This document shows, piece after piece, positions 47,093-62,932 of a stretch of DNA of 64,000 nt. The position numbers and the translations under genes were made by a program. The notes below the pieces were generated by a model. The model made no database searches. It saw only the letters and a list, made by a program, of their open reading frames with translations, and had not been told where the DNA came from. Every line of letters begins with the position of its first letter. The first letter of the stretch is position 1. Source of the stretch: Methanomicrobia archaeon (GTDB taxonomy: Archaea > Methanobacteriota_B > Thermococci > Methanofastidiosales > NM3); NCBI GenBank assembly GCA_030603445.1, contig JAUVXU010000001.1:43924-107923 (forward strand), given 5' to 3'.

Positions 47093-48106
47093 TTAATACT
47101 CATAGGTATCTGCTTCTTCTATTATTGCAACTAGTAGATCTATAAGGGATTTGATATCATTGATATCAATTATCTCATTGCCAGTATGCATGTACCTTAA
47201 TGGAATGAGAAGTGCAACAGTTGGTATACCGCCGTTTGCAGTATGTATTGGGGACGCATCCGTTCCACCTTTTGAGATGTCATATTGTAGAGTGATTTTA
47301 TGGGATTTTGCAATACCTTCTATAAATTCGCGCATTTTAGGTGAAAGAATATACTTATCATCTTTTAGAGTCATTGCAGGCCCGCCGCCAAGCACGGTGT
47401 TAATATCCCTTGCTTCTTTTTTTTGCGGAGTGTCATAAGCGAAGGTGACATCAACTGCAATGGCAATATCTGGCTTTTGCATTTGTGCTGCTACCTTTGC
47501 TCCCCTGGTGCCTACTTCCTCTTGGCTGGATGCGACCGCTATTAGTGTTCCAGGAAAAGATATCACTTTCTGGAATGCTTCAAGCATTGCACAAAGCCCT
47601 GCCCTGTTGTCAAATGATTTAGACACGTAACGAGATCCAAGCAGCTTTTCAAAAGAGGGCATCCTCGTTATTGGGCTCCCTATTTTTATATTAAGGTCTT
47701 CGAGATCCTCTTTGTTCTTTGCCCCAACGTCTATGTAAAGGTCCTTTAATTCTAGTTTTTCGTTTTTTGGAATGTCCCTTATTTGTATTATTCCAGTAAC
47801 AGATGGGCCAATGTGCACCCTTGAACCTAAGAGCTCGCTTGGGGATTGATGTCCTATGCTATCAAAGAAGATGAATCCTTTTTCATCAATATAGCGCACC
47901 ATTCCGCCAACTTCGTCCATGTGGGCACTAATTAGCATTGTAGGGCCGGGACGAGTTCCTTTCTTTGTCATCATAACGTTTCCTATAGAATCGCTTTCTA
48001 TGGAATCTGCCACGCCTTTCATCTCTTTTTTTATTAAGGATGCCACATTAGACTCATTACCTGAAACACCCTTTGCATTACATAATTTTCTTAATAGTTG
48101 TTCCAT
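47093..48106 (-). CDS. M42-family (TET/FrvX) aminopeptidase, paralog 1
   Basis: The M42 metal-ligand context is present (…SAHMDEVGGMV…, EEVGTRGA). The start is trimmed to MEQLLRKL, giving a TAATG overlap with the upstream stop. Confidence 0.85.
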   Translation of the reverse strand: MEQLLRKLCNAKGVSGNESNVASLIKKEMKGVADSIESDSIGNVMMTKKGTRPGPTMLISAHMDEVGGMVRYIDEKGFIFFDSIGHQSPSELLGSRVHIGPSVTGIIQIRDIPKNEKLELKDLYIDVGAKNKEDLEDLNIKIGSPITRMPSFEKLLGSRYVSKSFDNRAGLCAMLEAFQKVISFPGTLIAVASSQEEVGTRGAKVAAQMQKPDIAIAVDVTFAYDTPQKKEARDINTVLGGGPAMTLKDDKYILSPKMREFIEGIAKSHKITLQYDISKGGTDASPIHTANGGIPTVALLIPLRYMHTGNEIIDINDIKSLIDLLVAIIEEADTYEY

Positions 48107-49098
48107 TATATCCCCTCCACTAGACGCAATGATGCTGCCATTATAAGTTTTGAAGTGTAATTTATGTCTTTTTTGCTTGCTACAGCGCATGGCGAATGAA
48201 TATACCTGCAAGCTGTTGCGATAACGCCGCTTGGAGTGCCGTTTTCAAGATGAAAGGCACCGGCATCAGTACCGCCGGCAAAAGGTTTTTTGTATTGGTA
48301 GGGAATATCGTTTTCATATGCAGCAGCTTCAATGGATTCACGTAACAGTTTGTCAGCTATAAGAGTATTATCGGAGATTGTTATAGCAGGGCCGTTTCCC
48401 ATAACAGGCATACGTTCTTCCTTGGCCAACCCTGGAAAATCCAAAGCAAAGGTTCCCTCACACGCAATTGCATAGTCACAATTTACTTTTGTTCGTGCAA
48501 CCATGGCACCTCTTGTCCCTATTTCTTCTTGAACAGTAAAGATGCAGGTAATAGGAATTCCAAGCTGTGCTTTTAACATTTCTATAAGACATACGCACCC
48601 TATGCGGTCATCAAAGGCTTTTCCCATATATATATCGCCCTGCGACCTGAACGATGTTTCGAATGTTATCATATCACCTATTTGAACGTCTTCTGGGCCG
48701 ATATCGCCACAATCTATGCGCAGCTCGCTCTTTTTTACTGGAGAATCTTTCTTTTCCTTTGATTGTAGATGTAAAGGAGGGAACCCCACCACCCCAGACA
48801 AGCGTTTTTCTCCAATAGATACTACAGCCCCAGGAAGAAGATCATCCCTTATACCGCCGACCGTATCGAAGTCTATTATTCCATTTTCTTCAATGGCCGT
48901 TGCCATCATACCCACCTCGTCCATGTGGGCAAGGAGGCATATGGATGGGCCACTTCCTGATTGTGTGGCATAGAGATTTCCCATGGCGTCGGTACGCATT
49001 TTGTCACAGTAATCCAATATATTGTCTTTTATTATGGAGCGCACATCGTTTTCGTATCCTGCTATGCCGCGGGCATTGGAAAGTTCTTTTAGTAGCAA
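48106..49098 (-). CDS. M42-family (TET/FrvX) aminopeptidase, paralog 2
   Basis: …LAHMDEVGMMA…, QEEIGTRGA. Confidence 0.85.
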   Translation of the reverse strand: MLLKELSNARGIAGYENDVRSIIKDNILDYCDKMRTDAMGNLYATQSGSGPSICLLAHMDEVGMMATAIEENGIIDFDTVGGIRDDLLPGAVVSIGEKRLSGVVGFPPLHLQSKEKKDSPVKKSELRIDCGDIGPEDVQIGDMITFETSFRSQGDIYMGKAFDDRIGCVCLIEMLKAQLGIPITCIFTVQEEIGTRGAMVARTKVNCDYAIACEGTFALDFPGLAKEERMPVMGNGPAITISDNTLIADKLLRESIEAAAYENDIPYQYKKPFAGGTDAGAFHLENGTPSGVIATACRYIHSPCAVASKKDINYTSKLIMAASLRLVEGI

Positions 49099-50111
49099 GA
49101 GAATTCCTCCAAAAAAGGTGCATCCAACGATGATATGAATGATTTTAACAACATGGCTGATGCCTCCATATCCCTAATATCTGCCACTTCTGATGGAGTA
49201 TGCATATAGCGCACAGGCAGGCTTAAAAGAGCACCCGGAACGCCAGATTCTTGAATTGTGCGTAGGTTGGTCGGGGTTGCGGCAGGGTATGCTTTTATGG
49301 TGTGGGAAATGTTTTTTCTTTCTGCAATTTTCCTTAACCTATCTGATATGGTATTGTGAATGTTAGGCCCCACTCCTATTATTGGTCCACTCCCCAAAAC
49401 GCGCGTCTTGTTCTTATCAACGCCCTTCATATCACCATGTGTGGCATCAATTGAAATGGCAAACACAGGAGAGCAGAGTGCAATAGCACTTTGTACCCCT
49501 CTTGCCCCGACTTCTTCTTGAGAAGAAAATAAGAAGGCAATATTGTACTGGCTATCAATTATTTTAGAAAGGTGGCACAACACAGCACATCCTGCTCTAT
49601 TGTCTAGCGCCTTGGAGCATATCTTGGTCCCGCCCAAGCTGCGCAAGGGGGAATGGAAGGTAACTGGGTCCCCTATACGCACAAATCTCTCAAGTTCCTC
49701 TTTGGCCAAGCCAGTGTCTATTGGCAAATCTTGAAACTTAGGGATTTTATTTTCTTTGCATATGTGGGGAGGCGGGACACCTATGGTGCCGATAAGTTCC
49801 TTCTTACCATTTATTAATGCCTGTTTTCCAGTCATGATTCGTGGGTCTATTTTGCATATGGGCTCAAGGAATATATACCCATCATCGTCGATATGGCGCA
49901 CAAGGCCGCCTATCTCATCCATATGGGCATCAAGCAGTATTGTTGGCGCGTTTTTGTCCGCTTCCTTAATACAAATAAGATTCCCCATCGGGTCCGTCAT
50001 ATGGGACGTAAAATCACAAATCTTTAGGATGGCGTCAGATACATTGTGTTCATGCCCTGGGACGCCTGATTGTTCGGTTAATATTTTTAAATATTCAAAA
50101 AGAGAGGTCAC
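49089..50111 (-). CDS. M42-family (TET/FrvX) aminopeptidase, paralog 3
   Basis: …DAHMDEIGGLV…, QEEVGARGV. Confidence 0.85.
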   Translation of the reverse strand: MTSLFEYLKILTEQSGVPGHEHNVSDAILKICDFTSHMTDPMGNLICIKEADKNAPTILLDAHMDEIGGLVRHIDDDGYIFLEPICKIDPRIMTGKQALINGKKELIGTIGVPPPHICKENKIPKFQDLPIDTGLAKEELERFVRIGDPVTFHSPLRSLGGTKICSKALDNRAGCAVLCHLSKIIDSQYNIAFLFSSQEEVGARGVQSAIALCSPVFAISIDATHGDMKGVDKNKTRVLGSGPIIGVGPNIHNTISDRLRKIAERKNISHTIKAYPAATPTNLRTIQESGVPGALLSLPVRYMHTPSEVADIRDMEASAMLLKSFISSLDAPFLEEFSCY

Positions 50112-50682: not shown

Positions 50683-52008
50683 TTATTTTTCTTTATTTAC
50701 AAAATCTTCTAGTATTTTCTTTAAGTTAAGATTACCTATTTCTTCTAGATCATAGTGCACGCGCACGTAGGGTTTGTGAATTTTCATGATCCGTGTGAGG
50801 TCTATTGGCGTCCCCATAACGACCGCATCGCAGTTAGTCGCAGTAATGGTATCCTGCAGGTCACGAACTTGGGATTTGTTGTAGCCCATTGCCGGAACAA
50901 CGTGTTCTAAGTGAGGATATTTTTCAAATGTTTCCTTAAGCGACCCCACTAGAAACGGCCTTGGATCAACAATTTCTTTCACCCCGTATTTTTGGGCAGC
51001 GATATATCCTGCACCATACCCCATCCCGCCATGGGTCACAGTAGGGCCATCCTCAATGACTAGCACCCGTTTTTCTTTGATAAGGTCCGGATTGTTGATA
51101 GTCACTGGAGATGCAGCTTCTATTATTTCTGCTCCCGGATTGATCATTGATATGTTCTTGCGCACCCTTCTTACCTCCTCCCCACATGCGGTGTCTATTT
51201 TATTTATTATGCATACGTCCGCCATGCGCACATTAGCCTCCCCGGGATAATAGGTAAGTTCATTACCGGAGCGCAGGGGGTCTAGCACAACGATATAAAG
51301 GTCTGAAACATAAAAAGAGAAATCATTGTTGCCACCATCCCACAGGATAATGTCTGCTTCCATTTCCGCCTCACGTATTATCTTTTCATAGTTTACTCCG
51401 GCAAAAACAACAAAACCATTGTCTATGTGCGGCTCGTACTCTTCTCTTTCCTCTATTGTGGTGTTATATTTGTCGAGGTCTTTGTAAGTAGAAAAACGCT
51501 GGCATTCCTGTTCTTGGAGATTTCCATATGGCATTGGGTGGCGGATAACAACAACACGGTAACCCATCTCCTTTAGTTGCAGGGCTATTTTTCGTGTTAC
51601 TTGGCTTTTTCCACTGCCTGTACGGGATGCGCATACAGAAATAAGGGGCTTGTTACATTTTATCATAGTAGTTTTTGGCCCCATTATCCAATAATCGGCA
51701 CCAGCCGCCAGGACTCTTGAACCTAGCTGCATAACATGATCATATGGGAGGTCAGAATATGCCATTATCACTCTATCGATTTTATTTTTCTTTATCAGTT
51801 TCTCTAAATCCGCTTCTGGATATATGGGGATGCCTTCTGGATACAAGTCTCCAGTGAGTTTAGAAGGATATCTTCTTTTATCTATATCTGGTATCTGTGC
51901 AGCTGTGAAACACACGACATCATACTTGGAATTATCTTTGAAGTAAACGTTGAAGTTTTGAAAATCCCTTCCGGCAGCACCTAAAATAATTACTTTCGTT
52001 TTGTTCAT
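50683..52008 (-). CDS. Cyclic 2,3-diphosphoglycerate synthetase-like protein (COG2403 family)
   Basis: 441 aa with an N-terminal Rossmann-like segment (KVIILGAAGRDFQNF) and a P-loop (SRTGSGKSQVTRKIA). Size and layout recall methanogen cDPG synthetase. This is not verified. Confidence 0.5.
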   Translation of the reverse strand: MNKTKVIILGAAGRDFQNFNVYFKDNSKYDVVCFTAAQIPDIDKRRYPSKLTGDLYPEGIPIYPEADLEKLIKKNKIDRVIMAYSDLPYDHVMQLGSRVLAAGADYWIMGPKTTMIKCNKPLISVCASRTGSGKSQVTRKIALQLKEMGYRVVVIRHPMPYGNLQEQECQRFSTYKDLDKYNTTIEEREEYEPHIDNGFVVFAGVNYEKIIREAEMEADIILWDGGNNDFSFYVSDLYIVVLDPLRSGNELTYYPGEANVRMADVCIINKIDTACGEEVRRVRKNISMINPGAEIIEAASPVTINNPDLIKEKRVLVIEDGPTVTHGGMGYGAGYIAAQKYGVKEIVDPRPFLVGSLKETFEKYPHLEHVVPAMGYNKSQVRDLQDTITATNCDAVVMGTPIDLTRIMKIHKPYVRVHYDLEEIGNLNLKKILEDFVNKEK

Positions 52009-52077: not shown

Positions 52078-54336
52078 CTATTTTGCATATTGTTTTATGA
52101 TAAAGAGCAAGGTCGCGAAGGTGGAGGGATGGAGATATGATGGTATTTTTTTGGAGTTCACGTATATTTCTGGCATCTTGCCTTCCCATTCTGTGATAAA
52201 GTACCGTAATTTTCCACCAGAATAAAACGATGCACGCAGCACATTGTTAATAATATCATTTGAGATATCAGAATCCTTTTTGAGAAACATTTCAATAGTG
52301 ACAACAGGTAAGCGCCTTAGTTCTTGGATGTTTTTATCAGAAATTCCTCTTTTTGGAGTTTGTACCATGCTTCCGTGGTGCGCCCGGATTAGTGGGACAT
52401 GGGCACCCTTCCCATACAATGCGAACAAGCCGTCATAGTGGCATGATGCAAGTATTGCCCCAGGAGATTTTGCATTAAACGATGACAAGGGATACTTTTC
52501 ATTTGATTTAATGTCTAGAGTTCCAATTATATTACTACAAGTCTTTTGTTTACAAATGTTTGTGCATCGCTGGGCATTGCATGAGATGTATATGTCATTG
52601 TATGTTTCCTCTACTCTGCGCACAAACTGCAAGAATGCATTTACATTATTAACAGGTCCAGTATATAGCTGGCCATTAGTGATTATAATTGGTGTTTCCA
52701 CAAAACCACTGTACACTGCCTTATAGTAGTCGGCTGATTTTTCATCATAATATATGTTGTGTTTGTGCACAATATAGTCTGAGGAACCCTCAAGCCGCAT
52801 TATGGGATTTGACAGTTCCGTATGTGATTTGTAGAATACATCAATATAAACCGGCCGTTTCCATATATGCACTCGAGGTGCATCTACTTTTGGGATAGGC
52901 GGTTTAGGGGCCGGCCTTGTAACAGTGGTAGTGAATTTATTTGTAGATTCTTGGATGCGGGGTTCTCTTTCACGTTTTATTTTTATTTTTGGAAGTTTAA
53001 ATTGGGGGCGTGGCACACTAAATTGCGGTTTGTAATCAAATGAGATTGTAAGGGCGCCTGAAACTCTTTTGCATGCCTCAACACATTCACCACAAAGAGT
53101 ACAGTTTGTCTGTTCTTTATTTATTGTGTCAAAAATTATATTGGGTATGGAGCGCTTCTCTTGTTGTTTTTTTAGAAATAGTTCAGGGGATAGTTCCATA
53201 GGGCATGCTTTTTTGCATAGCCCACAAGAAATGCACCTGCTCTCATCTAGCTTTAATCGCAATAATGAAAAGCGATTGAAGTGTCCTGCAAGATGCCCCA
53301 ATGGGCAGAAGAATCTGCACCAGAAGCGTGAAACAACTATAGCAATTAGAAGTAGTGATGTGAAAATTACCACACGCATAACAAAGAGAGTGTCAGAGAA
53401 CACGTTGTGGGACAATCTGTATGGAAGTGCAGCTTCAAGCAGGCCTGCTGGGCACAACTTGCAAAACATTGTGTCAACAAACTCCCATGCAAACAAAATT
53501 AGGGCAATAAATACTATGGTGCGGGTTAAGTAAGTCAAGGCGCCCAAATGGTCTAAGCGAGGCCTTGCCGATTTTTTCGGCATGCCGGATATTTTTTTCC
53601 TAAGCAGTATGCATTTAATTCTGTAAAGATCATGGCTCAAATTTGTTCGGCTATACTTCACATTAGTTATTTTATCAACAACGTCATGTAGGAATCCGAA
53701 AGGACAGGCCCAACCACAAAACGCCCGGCCAACTATTGCGAAGAGGGTAAGGAAGTAACCCAAAAGATAGTAAGGTATCTCGCCCATAATGACCCAGTTC
53801 TGGAGTAGTCCAATAGGACAACCAGCAGTTGCCCACGGGCATGCATAACAGTGAAGACCGGGTGCTATTAGATGTTTTGCAACTATTCCCAGCGCCCCTA
53901 AATTGAACATTATGAGGGAGAATGTTTGGTAGATTTTTCTCCTGTTCGAAAGTGAGCTGTTTAGTTTTAGTATGATATATGTAAATAATATTATTCCAAT
54001 TGCAAGCAGTATCGTACCGGGCCAAATAGCAATATTTGTGGATTCTTTTGATCCAGTTATCTCATAGCGTACGAGAGCCAGACCATATAACGCGGTAGAG
54101 CTAAGAAAAATGGTTACAAAGAATACATACTTCTTATTAAGGATGTTTGATGCCCCTATACCCAAAAGAACTATACCACAATATCCCATAGTAAGTGTCA
54201 CTGCAGAATACCCTTTTGTCCCGAGTATTCCTGTGATCATGGATAGCAGGCTAACAAGCACTATTACTGTGCCTATGGTCACCATGATTTTCCAGGCGAT
54301 ATTTTGATCATTATTCGTTTTTTTCTGCTGTTCCAA
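52078..54336 (-). CDS. NapH/MauN-like membrane polyferredoxin fused to a ~350-aa C-terminal domain of unknown function
   Basis: There are multiple TM helices, then CGWACPFGFLHD…, CPLGHL…, CISCGLCKKACP, CTLCGECVEAC iron-sulfur motifs. These are followed by a Pro/Lys-rich linker and an uncharacterised Cys-containing domain. Confidence 0.6.
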   Translation of the reverse strand: MEQQKKTNNDQNIAWKIMVTIGTVIVLVSLLSMITGILGTKGYSAVTLTMGYCGIVLLGIGASNILNKKYVFFVTIFLSSTALYGLALVRYEITGSKESTNIAIWPGTILLAIGIILFTYIILKLNSSLSNRRKIYQTFSLIMFNLGALGIVAKHLIAPGLHCYACPWATAGCPIGLLQNWVIMGEIPYYLLGYFLTLFAIVGRAFCGWACPFGFLHDVVDKITNVKYSRTNLSHDLYRIKCILLRKKISGMPKKSARPRLDHLGALTYLTRTIVFIALILFAWEFVDTMFCKLCPAGLLEAALPYRLSHNVFSDTLFVMRVVIFTSLLLIAIVVSRFWCRFFCPLGHLAGHFNRFSLLRLKLDESRCISCGLCKKACPMELSPELFLKKQQEKRSIPNIIFDTINKEQTNCTLCGECVEACKRVSGALTISFDYKPQFSVPRPQFKLPKIKIKREREPRIQESTNKFTTTVTRPAPKPPIPKVDAPRVHIWKRPVYIDVFYKSHTELSNPIMRLEGSSDYIVHKHNIYYDEKSADYYKAVYSGFVETPIIITNGQLYTGPVNNVNAFLQFVRRVEETYNDIYISCNAQRCTNICKQKTCSNIIGTLDIKSNEKYPLSSFNAKSPGAILASCHYDGLFALYGKGAHVPLIRAHHGSMVQTPKRGISDKNIQELRRLPVVTIEMFLKKDSDISNDIINNVLRASFYSGGKLRYFITEWEGKMPEIYVNSKKIPSYLHPSTFATLLFIIKQYAK

Positions 54337-54856
54337 GCTCTACCACCATATCAATAACTTGAATAATATACCGTATGTCGTCTGGCCTTGGGTAGTTGGT
54401 AATGTAAGACTCATAAAGCCAGCTTTTGTAGTCATTGTTTTCGTTGGTTACCACGACCCAGGGCACACCAACGCTCTCAGCACCTGAATCATACATGGCT
54501 GCAAGCTCACGAAATAGTTCGACATCGTTGTCATATTTTACCTCAATGGCGGTCACGTTTTCGGAGAATCTGGCAAGCTCTTGGCACATTGCAATGACAC
54601 GAGGGCAAGATTTACAGGTTTCCGTAGAAAAGATGTATATGGTAATATCTTGTTCGAACTCCGTGTATTGTATTTTGGTCAAGTCATCTATTACTAAATA
54701 ATCGCTTGTTGTATTTGTGATACCCAAACAAGAGAGGCATATCACAGAAGATATATTCCTGCTCCTGGTCACATCATCGTATTGTGGGAGGACACCAATA
54801 ATTAGAAAAATGATGCCAAGAATCAAAATAATATACGGAGCAAGTCTTTTTCTCAT
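54311..54856 (-). CDS. Membrane-anchored thioredoxin-like protein (CxxC)
   Basis: It has an N-terminal TM anchor and an FSTETCKSCP CxxC motif in a thioredoxin-fold context. Confidence 0.5.
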   Translation of the reverse strand: MRKRLAPYIILILGIIFLIIGVLPQYDDVTRSRNISSVICLSCLGITNTTSDYLVIDDLTKIQYTEFEQDITIYIFSTETCKSCPRVIAMCQELARFSENVTAIEVKYDNDVELFRELAAMYDSGAESVGVPWVVVTNENNDYKSWLYESYITNYPRPDDIRYIIQVIDMVVELGTAEKNE

Positions 54857-55527
54857 ATCGTTCTACCTCTATTCACACCCAAATAAAGCTTTTCATACAA
54901 TTCATTCCAGTCTAATTTAGTCTCGATGCATCCAAGTGTTTCCAATAATACGCCCTGCACAGCGATACCGGCGTTTTGAACCGCCTTCATACCTTCTGCT
55001 AGGTCAGCAAAACAACCTACCCCAAGCACTGCTTTTGGATGCTCCATCTTAACGATCCTTTGCACGAAAGTTCCACCCGGAACAATAAATACTTTGTACC
55101 CCAATTGTTCAGCATTCAATTTGAAATCATCAATGGGGCATTTTTTGCATCCTGCACAGTTAATTCCATACTTCGAGGATAATTTAGCAGGGCAAGAAAT
55201 AGAACGCAGGCATTGCGGTAAAACTACGATACGCTTTTTAAGATCCGTTTTTGAAAATTTATTTTCATTTATGCGATTTTTTAATTGTATGTCTAGCAAG
55301 TCTATTGTATTAGGTTTTATTTTAAGAAGGATCATTATGCCTTTGAAGATGGGATGAAGTGTATCAATAAGGAAGGATTGAAATGTGGGAAAAATAAATA
55401 TTTTAGTGTGGATTGAAATAATAAATTGTAAAAGGCCAATTACAACAAGCAGGATAATTATGATGAGTAAATAAAAAACTGCCTCCCCAATTATTTGAAA
55501 CAACGATGTGTCAAGAGTTAAAATCAT
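54853..55527 (-). CDS. DUF116-family membrane protein
   Basis: N-terminal TM helices are followed by a conserved Cys-rich cytoplasmic domain (VLPQCLRSISCP…CAGCKKCP…GYKVFIVPGGT). Confidence 0.55.
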   Translation of the reverse strand: MILTLDTSLFQIIGEAVFYLLIIIILLVVIGLLQFIISIHTKIFIFPTFQSFLIDTLHPIFKGIMILLKIKPNTIDLLDIQLKNRINENKFSKTDLKKRIVVLPQCLRSISCPAKLSSKYGINCAGCKKCPIDDFKLNAEQLGYKVFIVPGGTFVQRIVKMEHPKAVLGVGCFADLAEGMKAVQNAGIAVQGVLLETLGCIETKLDWNELYEKLYLGVNRGRTI

Positions 55528-55660
55528 ATTATCTACCTTACTTATAAGAGATTGTTTTTAATATTATACTTAAATATTTCTAGAAAACTTTCAAAATTCT
55601 CTAACAGTAAATTTATAAAAGTAATGGAAAAGATTAATAAAAGGACAACCTTAGCTAAGG

Positions 55661-55909
55661 ATGGTGAAAAAGGAAATGGAAATGACACCTGAGGAAATAG
55701 AAGAAACAGATAGACAAAACATCAAACGTGTTTTCGAGGTTACAGGCCTATCGTTAAAAGACGACAAATGTGAAGATATCAGAAAGGCGATGCTTAAGGC
55801 TATTGCATTAAAACAAATCGCAGCAACGGCACTAGTTGACGGCGATGCAAAGGATCCTGACGTACTTGTAGCACTATATACTGTTGCATTATCTTCCCTT
55901 GTTAAGTGA
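55661..55909 (+). CDS. Small acidic hypothetical protein (82 aa)
   Basis: ORF whose stop overlaps the downstream start (ATGA). Confidence 0.35.
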   Translation: MVKKEMEMTPEEIEETDRQNIKRVFEVTGLSLKDDKCEDIRKAMLKAIALKQIAATALVDGDAKDPDVLVALYTVALSSLVK

Positions 55910-61300: not shown

Positions 61301-62932
61301 TTGATGCAACATATACGATATTTTTCATTGATATTTATTTTTTTATTGTTTTTTGAATCATTCTCTTTTTGTGCATCTCTTGAATCGAATGAAAATGTAG
61401 ATTTAGCTTTGGATAGTGGAAAAATTGTAGTTTTATATTTTTGGCAATCTGATTGTTCTTCATGTGGTAGCGTAGATGTTTCTATGACATCTATAGAAAC
61501 AATGTATGGCGATAGTATTGTTCTTTTCAGGCTTAATTTAGATCAAGGGGAAATTGTGTTAGAAACACGTTATTCTGTCAGCGTTACCCCAACTGTTGTT
61601 ATTTTTGATAGTTTAGGTAGAATTTTTGATACTTTGGCGGGTGCTAAAACCTTATCTTATTACATTGATCGCATTGATGCAGCATTTGCTGCAGAGGGGG
61701 GATTTAGAGATGAGGCCAATAAATATTATGACAATGCTTTACTCTTTTTTAATATTGAAAAGTATTCCAATGCAAAACAGTACTTTACGAAGGCACGTGA
61801 ATTGTATTCAAAAATAGGCGATGTTACTAAGACCATATTATGTGACCAGTTTATTCAGAAATCCGATAAATATATGGATGCAGCATTATATTTGGAACAG
61901 GCCGATGATAATTTTTTGGAAGAAGATTACCTACTTGCTAAATCTAATTATAATGTTGCTTTATCTTATTATTTGAATTTAAACGATTTAGATAAGATGG
62001 ATTATTGTAGTTTACAAATTGATAAATGTGATTTGTATCCCTCTCTTGAAGAGAATATGATTATTGCACAAAGGTATGTGTATGAACATAAATATGCATC
62101 TGCAAAAGTAGCTTTAATAGAAATTCGCAATGGATATGAGCAGTTAGGTGAGACAGAGAAAGTTGTTGAAATAGAAAATACTATCAAATTATGTAGCGAC
62201 TATATCTTAGCAAACCAATATTTTTCAGATGCGACTGTAGCAATTAATAACAAAAATTACGAAGTTGCAATTTCTAATTTTAATGAAGCAAAAAATATCT
62301 ATATTTCTTATGGCGACGAGGAAAAAATAATGTTATGTGACCAAAACATTGCTATTGCAAATCAATTATTGGAATTGCAGGTATCAATTACGCCCCCCCC
62401 TGCTGGTTTAGGAACGGATTACAGTAAGTATTATCCTTATGTGGCATTCATAGTATTTTGTGTATTAATTATAGGCGGAATAATAATATATTATACTAAA
62501 AGAAAAAAGAATAAATCTGGTGTTTCATCTTCTTCAAAAGTCCCTGCAATTGACAGAATATCTAAACAGTTGGATATTTCTTTTGATAAAAATACAATTG
62601 AAGAAGCAGAAATTCTAAGCGAAGAGGAGGATAAAGAACCGTCTTTTATACCCGAGGACCCGTTTAATTCTTATAAAAGTACTACTATTGAAGCAAAAAA
62701 TGAGCTTCTTTCTAACTTTTTACAGTGGGCAGAAGAGCTTGTTAAAGAACTCGATAATGCAAATTCAAAGGATTATTTTATATATCGTGACAAATTGGAT
62801 CAATTGTATTCTTTTTTCACACGTTCTTTTAGCTCGGATGAAGCATATCTTGACAAAGACCTACTTTCCTTGGTAAATGAACGCATTCATATTTGTCAAA
62901 CAAAGCTTACTGACTTGATAGACATAATATGA
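61301..62932 (+). CDS. Secreted/membrane-anchored TPR-like repeat protein with a C-terminal TM and acidic cytoplasmic tail
   Basis: It has a signal peptide and repeated ~34-aa Tyr/Ala/Asn-rich helical hairpins (…ANKYYDNALLFFNIEKYSNAKQYFTKARELYSK…). The TM is YVAFIVFCVLIIGGIIIYY. Confidence 0.5.
   Translation: MMQHIRYFSLIFIFLLFFESFSFCASLESNENVDLALDSGKIVVLYFWQSDCSSCGSVDVSMTSIETMYGDSIVLFRLNLDQGEIVLETRYSVSVTPTVVIFDSLGRIFDTLAGAKTLSYYIDRIDAAFAAEGGFRDEANKYYDNALLFFNIEKYSNAKQYFTKARELYSKIGDVTKTILCDQFIQKSDKYMDAALYLEQADDNFLEEDYLLAKSNYNVALSYYLNLNDLDKMDYCSLQIDKCDLYPSLEENMIIAQRYVYEHKYASAKVALIEIRNGYEQLGETEKVVEIENTIKLCSDYILANQYFSDATVAINNKNYEVAISNFNEAKNIYISYGDEEKIMLCDQNIAIANQLLELQVSITPPPAGLGTDYSKYYPYVAFIVFCVLIIGGIIIYYTKRKKNKSGVSSSSKVPAIDRISKQLDISFDKNTIEEAEILSEEEDKEPSFIPEDPFNSYKSTTIEAKNELLSNFLQWAEELVKELDNANSKDYFIYRDKLDQLYSFFTRSFSSDEAYLDKDLLSLVNERIHICQTKLTDLIDII

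Follow-up and report, generated by a model that had tools for sequence, protein, structure and literature searches.

A candidate iron-sulfur-based transmembrane reductant relay, pairing a NapH-like polyferredoxin with a membrane-anchored thioredoxin-like protein, in a Methanofastidiosales archaeon

We describe two overlapping genes, here called A and B, and propose with moderate confidence that their products relay reductant across the membrane through iron-sulfur centres, as a functional analogue of DsbD/CcdA that uses a NapH-type scaffold. They lie in a 64,000-nucleotide stretch of DNA, referred to throughout as the window, from a Methanomicrobia archaeon of the Methanofastidiosales (assembly GCA_030603445.1, contig JAUVXU010000001.1, positions 43,924 to 107,923 of the forward strand). 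Gene A encodes a polytopic iron-sulfur membrane protein, gene B a membrane-anchored thioredoxin-like protein, and a third gene, C, a DUF116 protein. The repair and maturation of surface proteins require cells to pass reducing power through the membrane, and the textbook routes (DsbD, CcdA and ScsB) consist of cysteine pairs fed by cytoplasmic thioredoxin. An initial annotation of this locus had proposed a dedicated transmembrane electron or thiol relay ending in an extracytoplasmic CxxC protein; for A and B that idea is supported by predicted topology, by the pairing of the two genes, by neighbouring genes and by gene fusions, all of it evidence of a comparative kind.

The three genes are consecutive on the minus strand. 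Gene A encodes 752 aa when read from TTG 54336, gene B 181 aa, and gene C (open reading frame (ORF) 54853 to 55527) 224 aa. The overlaps of 26 and 4 nt first reported for them are correct: C and B share a 4-nt ATGA, and B and A share 26 nt provided that A starts at TTG 54336. The publicly deposited A protein (P0001) has 735 aa, which would fit a start at ATG 54285, and residues of A are numbered from that ATG below. The TTG start is nevertheless plausible, because a Shine-Dalgarno-like GGTGGT site is found 6–11 nt 5' of it, the residues 'IAWKI' that it adds are kept in homologs, and homologous B/A gene pairs overlap too, by 14, 8 and 1 nt. All three proteins have strong homologs and are therefore products of real genes rather than chance ORFs. 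The relevant parts of A and B are as follows.

52078 to 54336, minus strand: gene A, polytopic Fe-S membrane protein (ORF, Pfam, homologs, start analysis)
53962 to 54285, minus strand: A residues 1–108, four extra N-terminal transmembrane (TM) helices (hydropathy, AF2 helices, alignment)
53251 to 53961, minus strand: A residues 109–345, NapH-type four-helix membrane core, Fer4_5 (Pfam, hydropathy, NapH alignment)
53815 to 53850, minus strand: outer-loop motif 1 of A, C146-Y-A-C149-P-W-A-T-A-G-C156-P (alignment, lysine and arginine counts)
53701 to 53718, minus strand: inner CX3CP motif 1 of A, C190-G-W-A-C194-P (invariant across 39 homologs)
53449 to 53463, minus strand: outer-loop motif 2 of A, C275-K-L-C278-P (alignment)
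53302 to 53319, minus strand: inner CX3CP motif 2 of A, C323-R-F-F-C327-P (invariant in the alignment)
53026 to 53250, minus strand: A residues 346–420, predicted cytoplasmic 2x[4Fe-4S] ferredoxin domain, CISCGLCKKACP ... CTLCGECVEAC (Pfam, profile)
52852 to 53025, minus strand: A residues 421–478, Pro/Lys-rich linker (predicted disordered; pLDDT <50 for residues 426–473)
54311 to 54856, minus strand: gene B, membrane-anchored thioredoxin-like protein of 181 aa (ORF, homologs, profile)
54716 to 54853, minus strand: B residues 2–47, lysine- and arginine-rich N-terminus, TM anchor (residues 5–23) and ICLSCLGIT motif (hhalign)
54728 to 54739, minus strand: first CxxC of B, C40-L-S-C43 (alignment)
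54602 to 54616, minus strand: thioredoxin active site of B, C81-K-S-C84-P (alignment, profile)

Gene A matches Fer4_5 (PF12801) in two stretches, at 50.5 bits against a cut-off of 22, and also carries a dicluster ferredoxin match. Hydropathy and an AF2 model (mean pLDDT 78) give eight TM helices, of which helices 1–4 are restricted to this clade and helices 5–8 constitute the NapH-type core. Both in 11 orthologs and in 24 short relatives, loops with high and low counts of lysine and arginine (K+R) take turns: those bearing CX3CP have 17–29 K+R per 100 aa, the loop with C146, C149 and C156 has none in 26 residues, and the loop with C275-x2-C278-P is also K/R-poor. By the positive-inside rule, this alternation predicts that both CX3CP motifs, the ferredoxin domain and all downstream parts of A are cytoplasmic, and that C146, C149, C156, C275 and C278 face outward. 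Protein B is predicted to be anchored N-in by a single helix, which places first C40/C43 and then C81/C84 outside. The predicted topology sets the CxxC motifs of B and the Fe-S domain of A on opposite sides of the membrane. Only part of the original count of at least four [4Fe-4S]-type cysteine motifs in A survives closer reading: two are classical CxxCxxCxxxC(P) motifs, and the rest are two CX3CP motifs, two outer CxxCP motifs and one four-cysteine remnant.

The outer cysteines recur widely among relatives of A. An exhaustive search with the core of A returned 4683 cluster representatives at E ≤1e-3, 1000 of them at E ≤1e-10. Among the best 150 from a search with this core, 143 were newly retrieved, and a position-aware count finds outer motif 1 at the right position in 132 of the 143 and motif 2 in 104. 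C149, C275 and C278 have been lost jointly in Thermoplasmatota relatives, and at the one Thermoplasmatota locus checked there is neither a TM-CxxC module of the kind described below for B nor a thioredoxin gene.

Gene B had been called a TM-anchored, CxxC-containing thioredoxin-fold protein, which its profile and the cysteine pairs C40/C43 and C81/C84 bear out. A single-sequence Pfam scan gives no match for B, and its NCBIfam matches fall below cut-off; compared with the PDB, the B profile finds the thioredoxin fold in PDO and Trx chains, the best being PDO 1j08 at E 2.6e-17. C81-K-S-C84-P is invariant, as is P132 (in G-V-P132-W), presumably the cis-proline. Distant B-like proteins keep the K/R-rich start, the TM helix, the 'ICLSCLG(I/L)T' motif and CKSCP.

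What the first description of B missed is that the protein is a fusion of a widespread small TM-CxxC module with a thioredoxin domain. In Peptoclostridium acidaminophilum, the start of the best plasmid-borne A-like gene is overlapped by a gene for a 45-aa 'CD1871A family CXXC motif-containing protein' (NF040920), which consists of a TM helix followed by '...NICLECIGIG'. A profile-profile comparison (hhalign) of 14 such mini-proteins with the B family gave a probability of 96.6% and E 6.8e-10 over B residues 2–47. The CD1871A family shares with this part of B a K/R-rich start, one TM helix, a spacer of 15–20 residues and the motif (I/L)C(L/M)(E/S)C(I/L/V)G, and its genes occupy the same position, directly upstream of an A-like gene and overlapping it; its members are about 45–50 aa long and end right after the motif, whereas B runs on into the thioredoxin domain. 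Because the NF040920 model gives no match to B residues 1–50 at E up to 1 (its cut-off is 32 bits, and the P. acidaminophilum 45-mer scores 63.4), residues 2–47 of B are classed on sequence as a relative of the CD1871A family and not as a member. Our literature search found no published function for this family. In 53 loci such a mini-ORF runs up to or into the start of the A-like gene, and 13 more have the long, B-like form; together, a TM-CxxC module immediately precedes the A-like gene in 66 of the 83 loci with room for one, in archaea and bacteria alike. This is a lower bound, the strict pattern having skipped a 'CQEC' module in locus L006, where the A-like gene that follows the module is itself fused to a TlpA-like domain.

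Close relatives, in which A is 44–56% identical, share the whole neighbourhood of about 14 kb and carry little weight as evidence for the pairing of A with B. More telling are loci L004 and L168, where the B-A pair has different neighbours and no DUF116 gene, and a Methanofastidiosum locus (L005, 3140–8846) with the gene order thioredoxin-reductase-like flavoprotein, PDO-like protein, Trx, B-like, A-like and BacA. In this last cluster the PDO-like protein has 240 aa, Trx is a 208-aa lipoprotein-like protein and BacA is an undecaprenyl-diphosphatase; its gene content is suggestive of a thiol-based donor or of a connection with the cell envelope.

The thioredoxin domain is found with A-like proteins in other arrangements as well. 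Among 58 long relatives of A, 29 have a fused Redoxin, AhpC-TSA or Thioredoxin domain. In the 12 fusions examined, the core is always followed by the ferredoxin domain, then by a K/R stretch, one or more additional hydrophobic helices and, last, a WCxxC domain; the extra helix would put the fused thioredoxin domain on the opposite side from the ferredoxin domain, a predicted topology that mirrors that of B. In metagenomic loci retrieved with an alignment of five short-form A sequences, a same-strand thioredoxin/TlpA-like gene directly adjoins the A-like gene in 64 of 80 cases (45 downstream, 19 upstream), and 59 of these 64 partners have an N-terminal hydrophobic anchor. Pfam confirms the identity of the partners, which score as TlpA/ResA/DsbE-like. 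When the A-like proteins are clustered at 70% identity, a partner is present in 16 of 22 clusters. Sources of the loci include Clostridia (Zongyangia, Pararuminococcus), TA06 and WOR-3, and the environmental proteins are annotated only as '4Fe-4S binding protein', 'polyferredoxin' or 'NapH'. The thioredoxin domain is thus attached in three ways: fused to the TM-CxxC module, as in B; as a separate downstream gene; or fused to the end of A. These comparisons show a recurring three-part gene set of TM-CxxC module, NapH-like core with outer cysteines, and thioredoxin/TlpA domain, in which the modes of attaching the last part are interchangeable.

Some partners and loci depart from these arrangements. 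At L095 (1917–3986, plus strand) the upstream partner is a 689-aa protein combining a TlpA-like domain with a B-like Thioredoxin_9 domain. The upstream partners at L088, L091 and L094 have 334–402 aa, with about 175 extra N-terminal residues, and their two CxxC motifs are still separated by 41 residues, just as in B. On a Sulfurovum mangrovi plasmid (L172, 807–3951), two consecutive '4Fe-4S binding protein' genes, the second of them A-like, directly precede the genes for a 2-hydroxyacyl-CoA dehydratase and its activase, and the annotation shows no thioredoxin gene near the A-like gene. Within the window, a 543-aa protein encoded at 61301 to 62932 (plus strand) begins like a signal peptide and contains a thioredoxin domain (Pfam, E 1.6e-5; motif DCSSCG) and long helical repeats; a TM helix and a tail rich in K/R stand at its C-terminus. 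This extracytoplasmic thioredoxin-fold protein, 7 kb from A and B, could be a client of the relay or a second acceptor.

The third gene of the unit bears on the question of how many components such a relay would have. Gene C was described from the outset as a DUF116 membrane protein with conserved cysteines, and this holds: it scores 156.7 bits on DUF116 (PF01976) against a cut-off of 25 (E 4.1e-46). One long N-terminal helix leads into a Rossmann-like domain that is rich in K/R and has seven invariant cysteines, three of them forming a CxxCxxC, and its sequence predicts a membrane-anchored, cysteine-rich protein facing the cytoplasm. Structure comparison found no informative relative. The features of C and of the region upstream are these.

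54853 to 55527, minus strand: gene C, DUF116 protein (N-terminal TM helix, Rossmann-like domain, seven invariant cysteines)
55138 to 55212, minus strand: DUF116 cysteine cluster, C106-x5-C112-x11-C124-x2-C127-x2-C130, with C172 and C200 in addition (alignment)
55528 to 55660, minus strand: AT-rich stretch between genes, 5' of DUF116, containing a TTTATAAA box and a ribosome-binding site (AAGGTAG); from its sequence, probably the promoter region of the C-B-A unit

It could be supposed that all three genes make up one module in which DUF116 is obligatory, for instance as a subunit for electron entry or maturation on the cytoplasmic side. The DUF116 gene opens the apparent operon and shares 4 nt with B, relatives whose A is 44–56% identical retain the order DUF116-B-A, and seven invariant cysteines with a CxxCxxC sit on its membrane-anchored, predicted cytoplasmic domain. 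The linkage in those close relatives is, however, not independent, given their shared synteny of about 14 kb, and elsewhere it dissolves. DUF116 is common in methanogens, anaerobic methanotrophic archaea (ANME) and related metagenome-assembled genomes; among the best 80 of 309 DUF116 loci confirmed by one peptide pattern, A/B adjoins DUF116 in a single locus, one close to the window. In Methanofastidiosum, B-A (L005) and DUF116 (L079) each occupy a locus of their own, in assembly GCA_034659995.1 they are on different contigs, and DUF116 is present in none of the 80 bacterial and environmental A-like loci. The composition that the initial annotation took for a module, and the co-occurrence of DUF116 with NapH-like and Trx-like genes, are accordingly confined to close relatives with a shared neighbourhood. 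As a general arrangement the three-gene module is largely refuted by these comparisons, and we regard it as improbable; DUF116 was rejected as a general partner of A/B on the count of 1 in the best 80 of 309 loci. By the same comparisons, DUF116 is a clade-specific neighbour that joined the operon in one clade only, and at most an accessory factor.

The commonest neighbour of DUF116 is a pyridoxal phosphate (PLP) decarboxylase, mostly by way of a sample dominated by Methanoperedens. The Methanoperedens loci (L016–L045 and others) carry a conserved run of peroxiredoxin, 90-aa thioredoxin, MBL-fold protein, DUF116 and PLP-dependent decarboxylase (MfnA-like). This run is a second, independent case of DUF116 lying among thiol-redox genes, but it may be simple lineage synteny.

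In the proposed A+B relay, a low-potential cytoplasmic donor, most likely reduced ferredoxin, would feed electrons into the ferredoxin domain of A. Within the A core, the inner cysteine sites and after them the outer ones would carry the electrons across the membrane. The outer cysteines would reduce the membrane-proximal CxxC of B (C40/C43) and through it the thioredoxin CxxC, and B would in turn reduce disulfides or sulfenic acids of surface or secreted proteins. A 2-oxoacid:ferredoxin oxidoreductase-type protein is also encoded in the window; this is no specific evidence for the donor.

The reducing direction is suggested by the active sites of the partners, which are of thioredoxin/TlpA type (WCGPC, CSGC, CxPC). 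The same parts might run in reverse, with B oxidising the cysteines of exported proteins as DsbA does and A taking the electrons inward in the manner of DsbB/VKOR: the A/B architecture fixes no direction, iron-sulfur wires are reversible, and the window has no obvious DsbB for this euryarchaeal lineage. We nonetheless think this distinctly unlikely. The partner sites are thioredoxin/TlpA/ResA-like (WCGPC, CxPC, CKSC) and not the CPHC of DsbA, low-potential [4Fe-4S] ferredoxin domains make poor sinks for thiol electrons, and the hosts are strict anaerobes, in which the expected need is for reduction.

Several observations weigh against a reductant relay formed by A and B. The topology of both proteins is a prediction, the passage of electrons across a membrane of about 30 Å within A is a proposal, and the direction of flow is suggested by motif type alone. 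A large share of the metagenomic loci come from gut sequences closely related to one another; clustering the A-like proteins at 50% identity leaves a partner in only 5 of 9 clusters, and nine metagenomic loci with room on both sides have no adjacent thioredoxin gene. For NosR, a published discussion puts the iron content at no more than 8 Fe per protein, which speaks against CX3CP motifs as cluster ligands (PMC5928378). The thioredoxin reductase and PDO-like genes beside the pair in Methanofastidiosum hint at a thiol donor, and a search of the literature found no paper on a NapH-like core paired with a thioredoxin.

A further possibility is that A is a metal reductase or metal handler like CcoG, with the CxxC partners acting as metal chaperones. 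CcoG is a polyferredoxin of the same superfamily as A and reduces Cu(II), loops rich in Cys-Pro could bind soft metals, and CX3CP is also the copper-binding motif of Sco. CcoG is, however, described as facing the cytoplasm (PMC8267372). Genes for CopA, Sco, PCuAC or oxidases stand beside A at none of the loci examined, and the partners score as thiol-disulfide oxidoreductases of the TlpA/ResA/DsbE type. We place little credence in this explanation.

Protein A shares with Escherichia coli NapH (b2204) the four-helix core, the two CX3CP motifs at the cytoplasmic ends of its helices and a C-terminal 2x[4Fe-4S] domain, and differs from it in having four extra helices and a C-terminal extension of about 310 aa. 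In the alignment, NapH has none of the five outer cysteines: 11 residues are deleted at loop 1, and loop 2 reads 'IWEWINPVSL'. NapH also lacks a TM-CxxC or thioredoxin partner and works with NapG, NapC and NapA. On the NapH/MauN model TIGR02163, A scores 49.5 against a cut-off of 213.05, and on the NapH equivalog NF007013 it scores 38.6 against 234. Because these scores fall so far short and the outer cysteines are absent from NapH, the sequence of A is read as NapH-like but not as that of a NapH. That A might even so be a true NapH-type quinol dehydrogenase feeding an extracytoplasmic reductase, with B as an assembly factor, is suggested by the shared core, CX3CP motifs and ferredoxin domain and is highly improbable in view of those scores, of outer cysteines and a TM-CxxC partner that NapH does not have, and of the want of napA, napG or any other reductase gene nearby, no nap gene occurring in the window neighbourhood or at 8 homologous loci.

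Other known systems resemble the proposed A+B relay in part. Flavinylated NapH-like systems (NosR, PceC/RdhC) have been proposed as transmembrane electron movers (PMC8238504; Buttet et al. 2018, PMC5928378), and Meheust et al. (2021) described NapH-like cores coupled to extracytoplasmic FMN-binding domains (PMC8238504). As in those systems, A and B join a NapH-type module to an extracytoplasmic redox domain; in place of an FMN-binding domain flavinylated by ApbE on the outside, however, they have a CxxC module and a thioredoxin fold, and no FMN_bind or ApbE Pfam match was found in A, B, C or the neighbours scanned. The same authors ranked extracytosolic mediators as three kinds, thioredoxin-like proteins, cytochromes and flavinylated proteins, and give no description of a NapH-like core paired with a thioredoxin (PMC8238504).

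DsbD/CcdA, with its partners TlpA, ResA and CcmG, performs the job predicted for A and B, and the partners of bacterial A-like proteins score as TlpA/ResA/DsbE-like. The two are not related in sequence, and neither A, B nor C matches the DsbD family in Pfam (PF02683). DsbD/CcdA uses cysteine pairs only and draws its electrons from thioredoxin, whereas A/B has at least three [4Fe-4S]-type sites. Ferredoxin:thioredoxin reductase (FTR/FDR) converts one-electron Fe-S input into two-electron reduction of a disulfide beside a cluster. Its likeness to A is one of chemical logic only, FTR being soluble and unrelated to A in sequence.

The C-terminal part of A, which had been reported as an unassigned domain of about 350 aa, is smaller than that (about 310 aa) and can now be assigned. 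Its two features are the following.

52081 to 52851, minus strand: A residues 479–735, C-terminal domain of two thioredoxin folds (AF2 model, profile comparison)
52441 to 52566, minus strand: ferredoxin-like insert between the two thioredoxin folds (alignment with Methanofastidiosum orthologs)

Residues 479–735 are modelled with pLDDT mostly >90, dipping at 570–579 and 630–649, as a beta-alpha-beta-alpha-beta-beta-alpha unit, the insert and a second unit like the first. CxxC is absent from the canonical site of both folds, where KSHTEL and KKDSDIS stand instead, and no cysteine is conserved among orthologs at these sites. In Methanofastidiosum orthologs the insert holds a complete two-cluster (2x[4Fe-4S]) ferredoxin motif; the insert in the window protein retains three cysteines from the start of motif 1 (C574, C578 and C583) together with the final one of motif 2 (C615), exactly the four ligands of one cluster. 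From the alignment and the model, we assign the domain as two thioredoxin folds in tandem, both without CxxC, flanking a vestigial ferredoxin insert with the ligands of one cluster. Archaeal PDO (1a8l/2ayt/2hls) and the N-terminal domain of AhpF (1zyn) likewise have two tandem thioredoxin folds; unlike them, A lacks CxxC at both canonical sites and has a ferredoxin-like insert between the folds. Our guess is that this domain might be a docking or entry site for the electron donor.

The gene neighbours of the unit are housekeeping genes: a CCA-adding enzyme, a LigT-like phosphoesterase, a phosphoribosyltransferase and three M42 peptidases. The last are tandem aminopeptidase paralogs of the M42 family (47093 to 50111, minus strand), found in the same arrangement in the related contigs L001 and L002. 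Between them and gene A, separated from the latter by a 69-nt gap, lies a gene for a 441-aa P-loop protein (50683 to 52008, minus strand) distantly related to cyclic 2,3-diphosphoglycerate synthetase (PDB 9sxb, E 6e-11); its position is shared by close relatives only, and distant B-A loci lack it. On the other side, an 82-aa ORF with no family match (55661 to 55909, plus strand) diverges from the DUF116-B-A unit, and a gene of 75–77 aa occupies its position in L001–L003.

More tentatively, A and B may represent a widespread and so far unrecognised class of machinery for reducing disulfides across the membrane, carried by archaea, gut Clostridia and candidate phyla. The parts of such a class would conceivably be a small TM-CxxC subunit of CD1871A type, a NapH-like polyferredoxin with outer cysteines and a thioredoxin/TlpA domain, and its outer face might employ cluster-plus-disulfide chemistry like that of ferredoxin:thioredoxin reductase. 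If the proposal is correct, there would be a second route for reducing power across the membrane, wired to ferredoxin, as against the routes through DsbD, CcdA and ScsB, and many strict anaerobes, from relatives of the methanogens to abundant human-gut Clostridia, would have this ferredoxin route through iron-sulfur centres. It would also give a job to a subfamily of genes known as '4Fe-4S binding protein', to the CD1871A mini-proteins and to many orphan TlpA-like genes, and would extend the view of NapH-type cores as general-purpose transmembrane electron modules.

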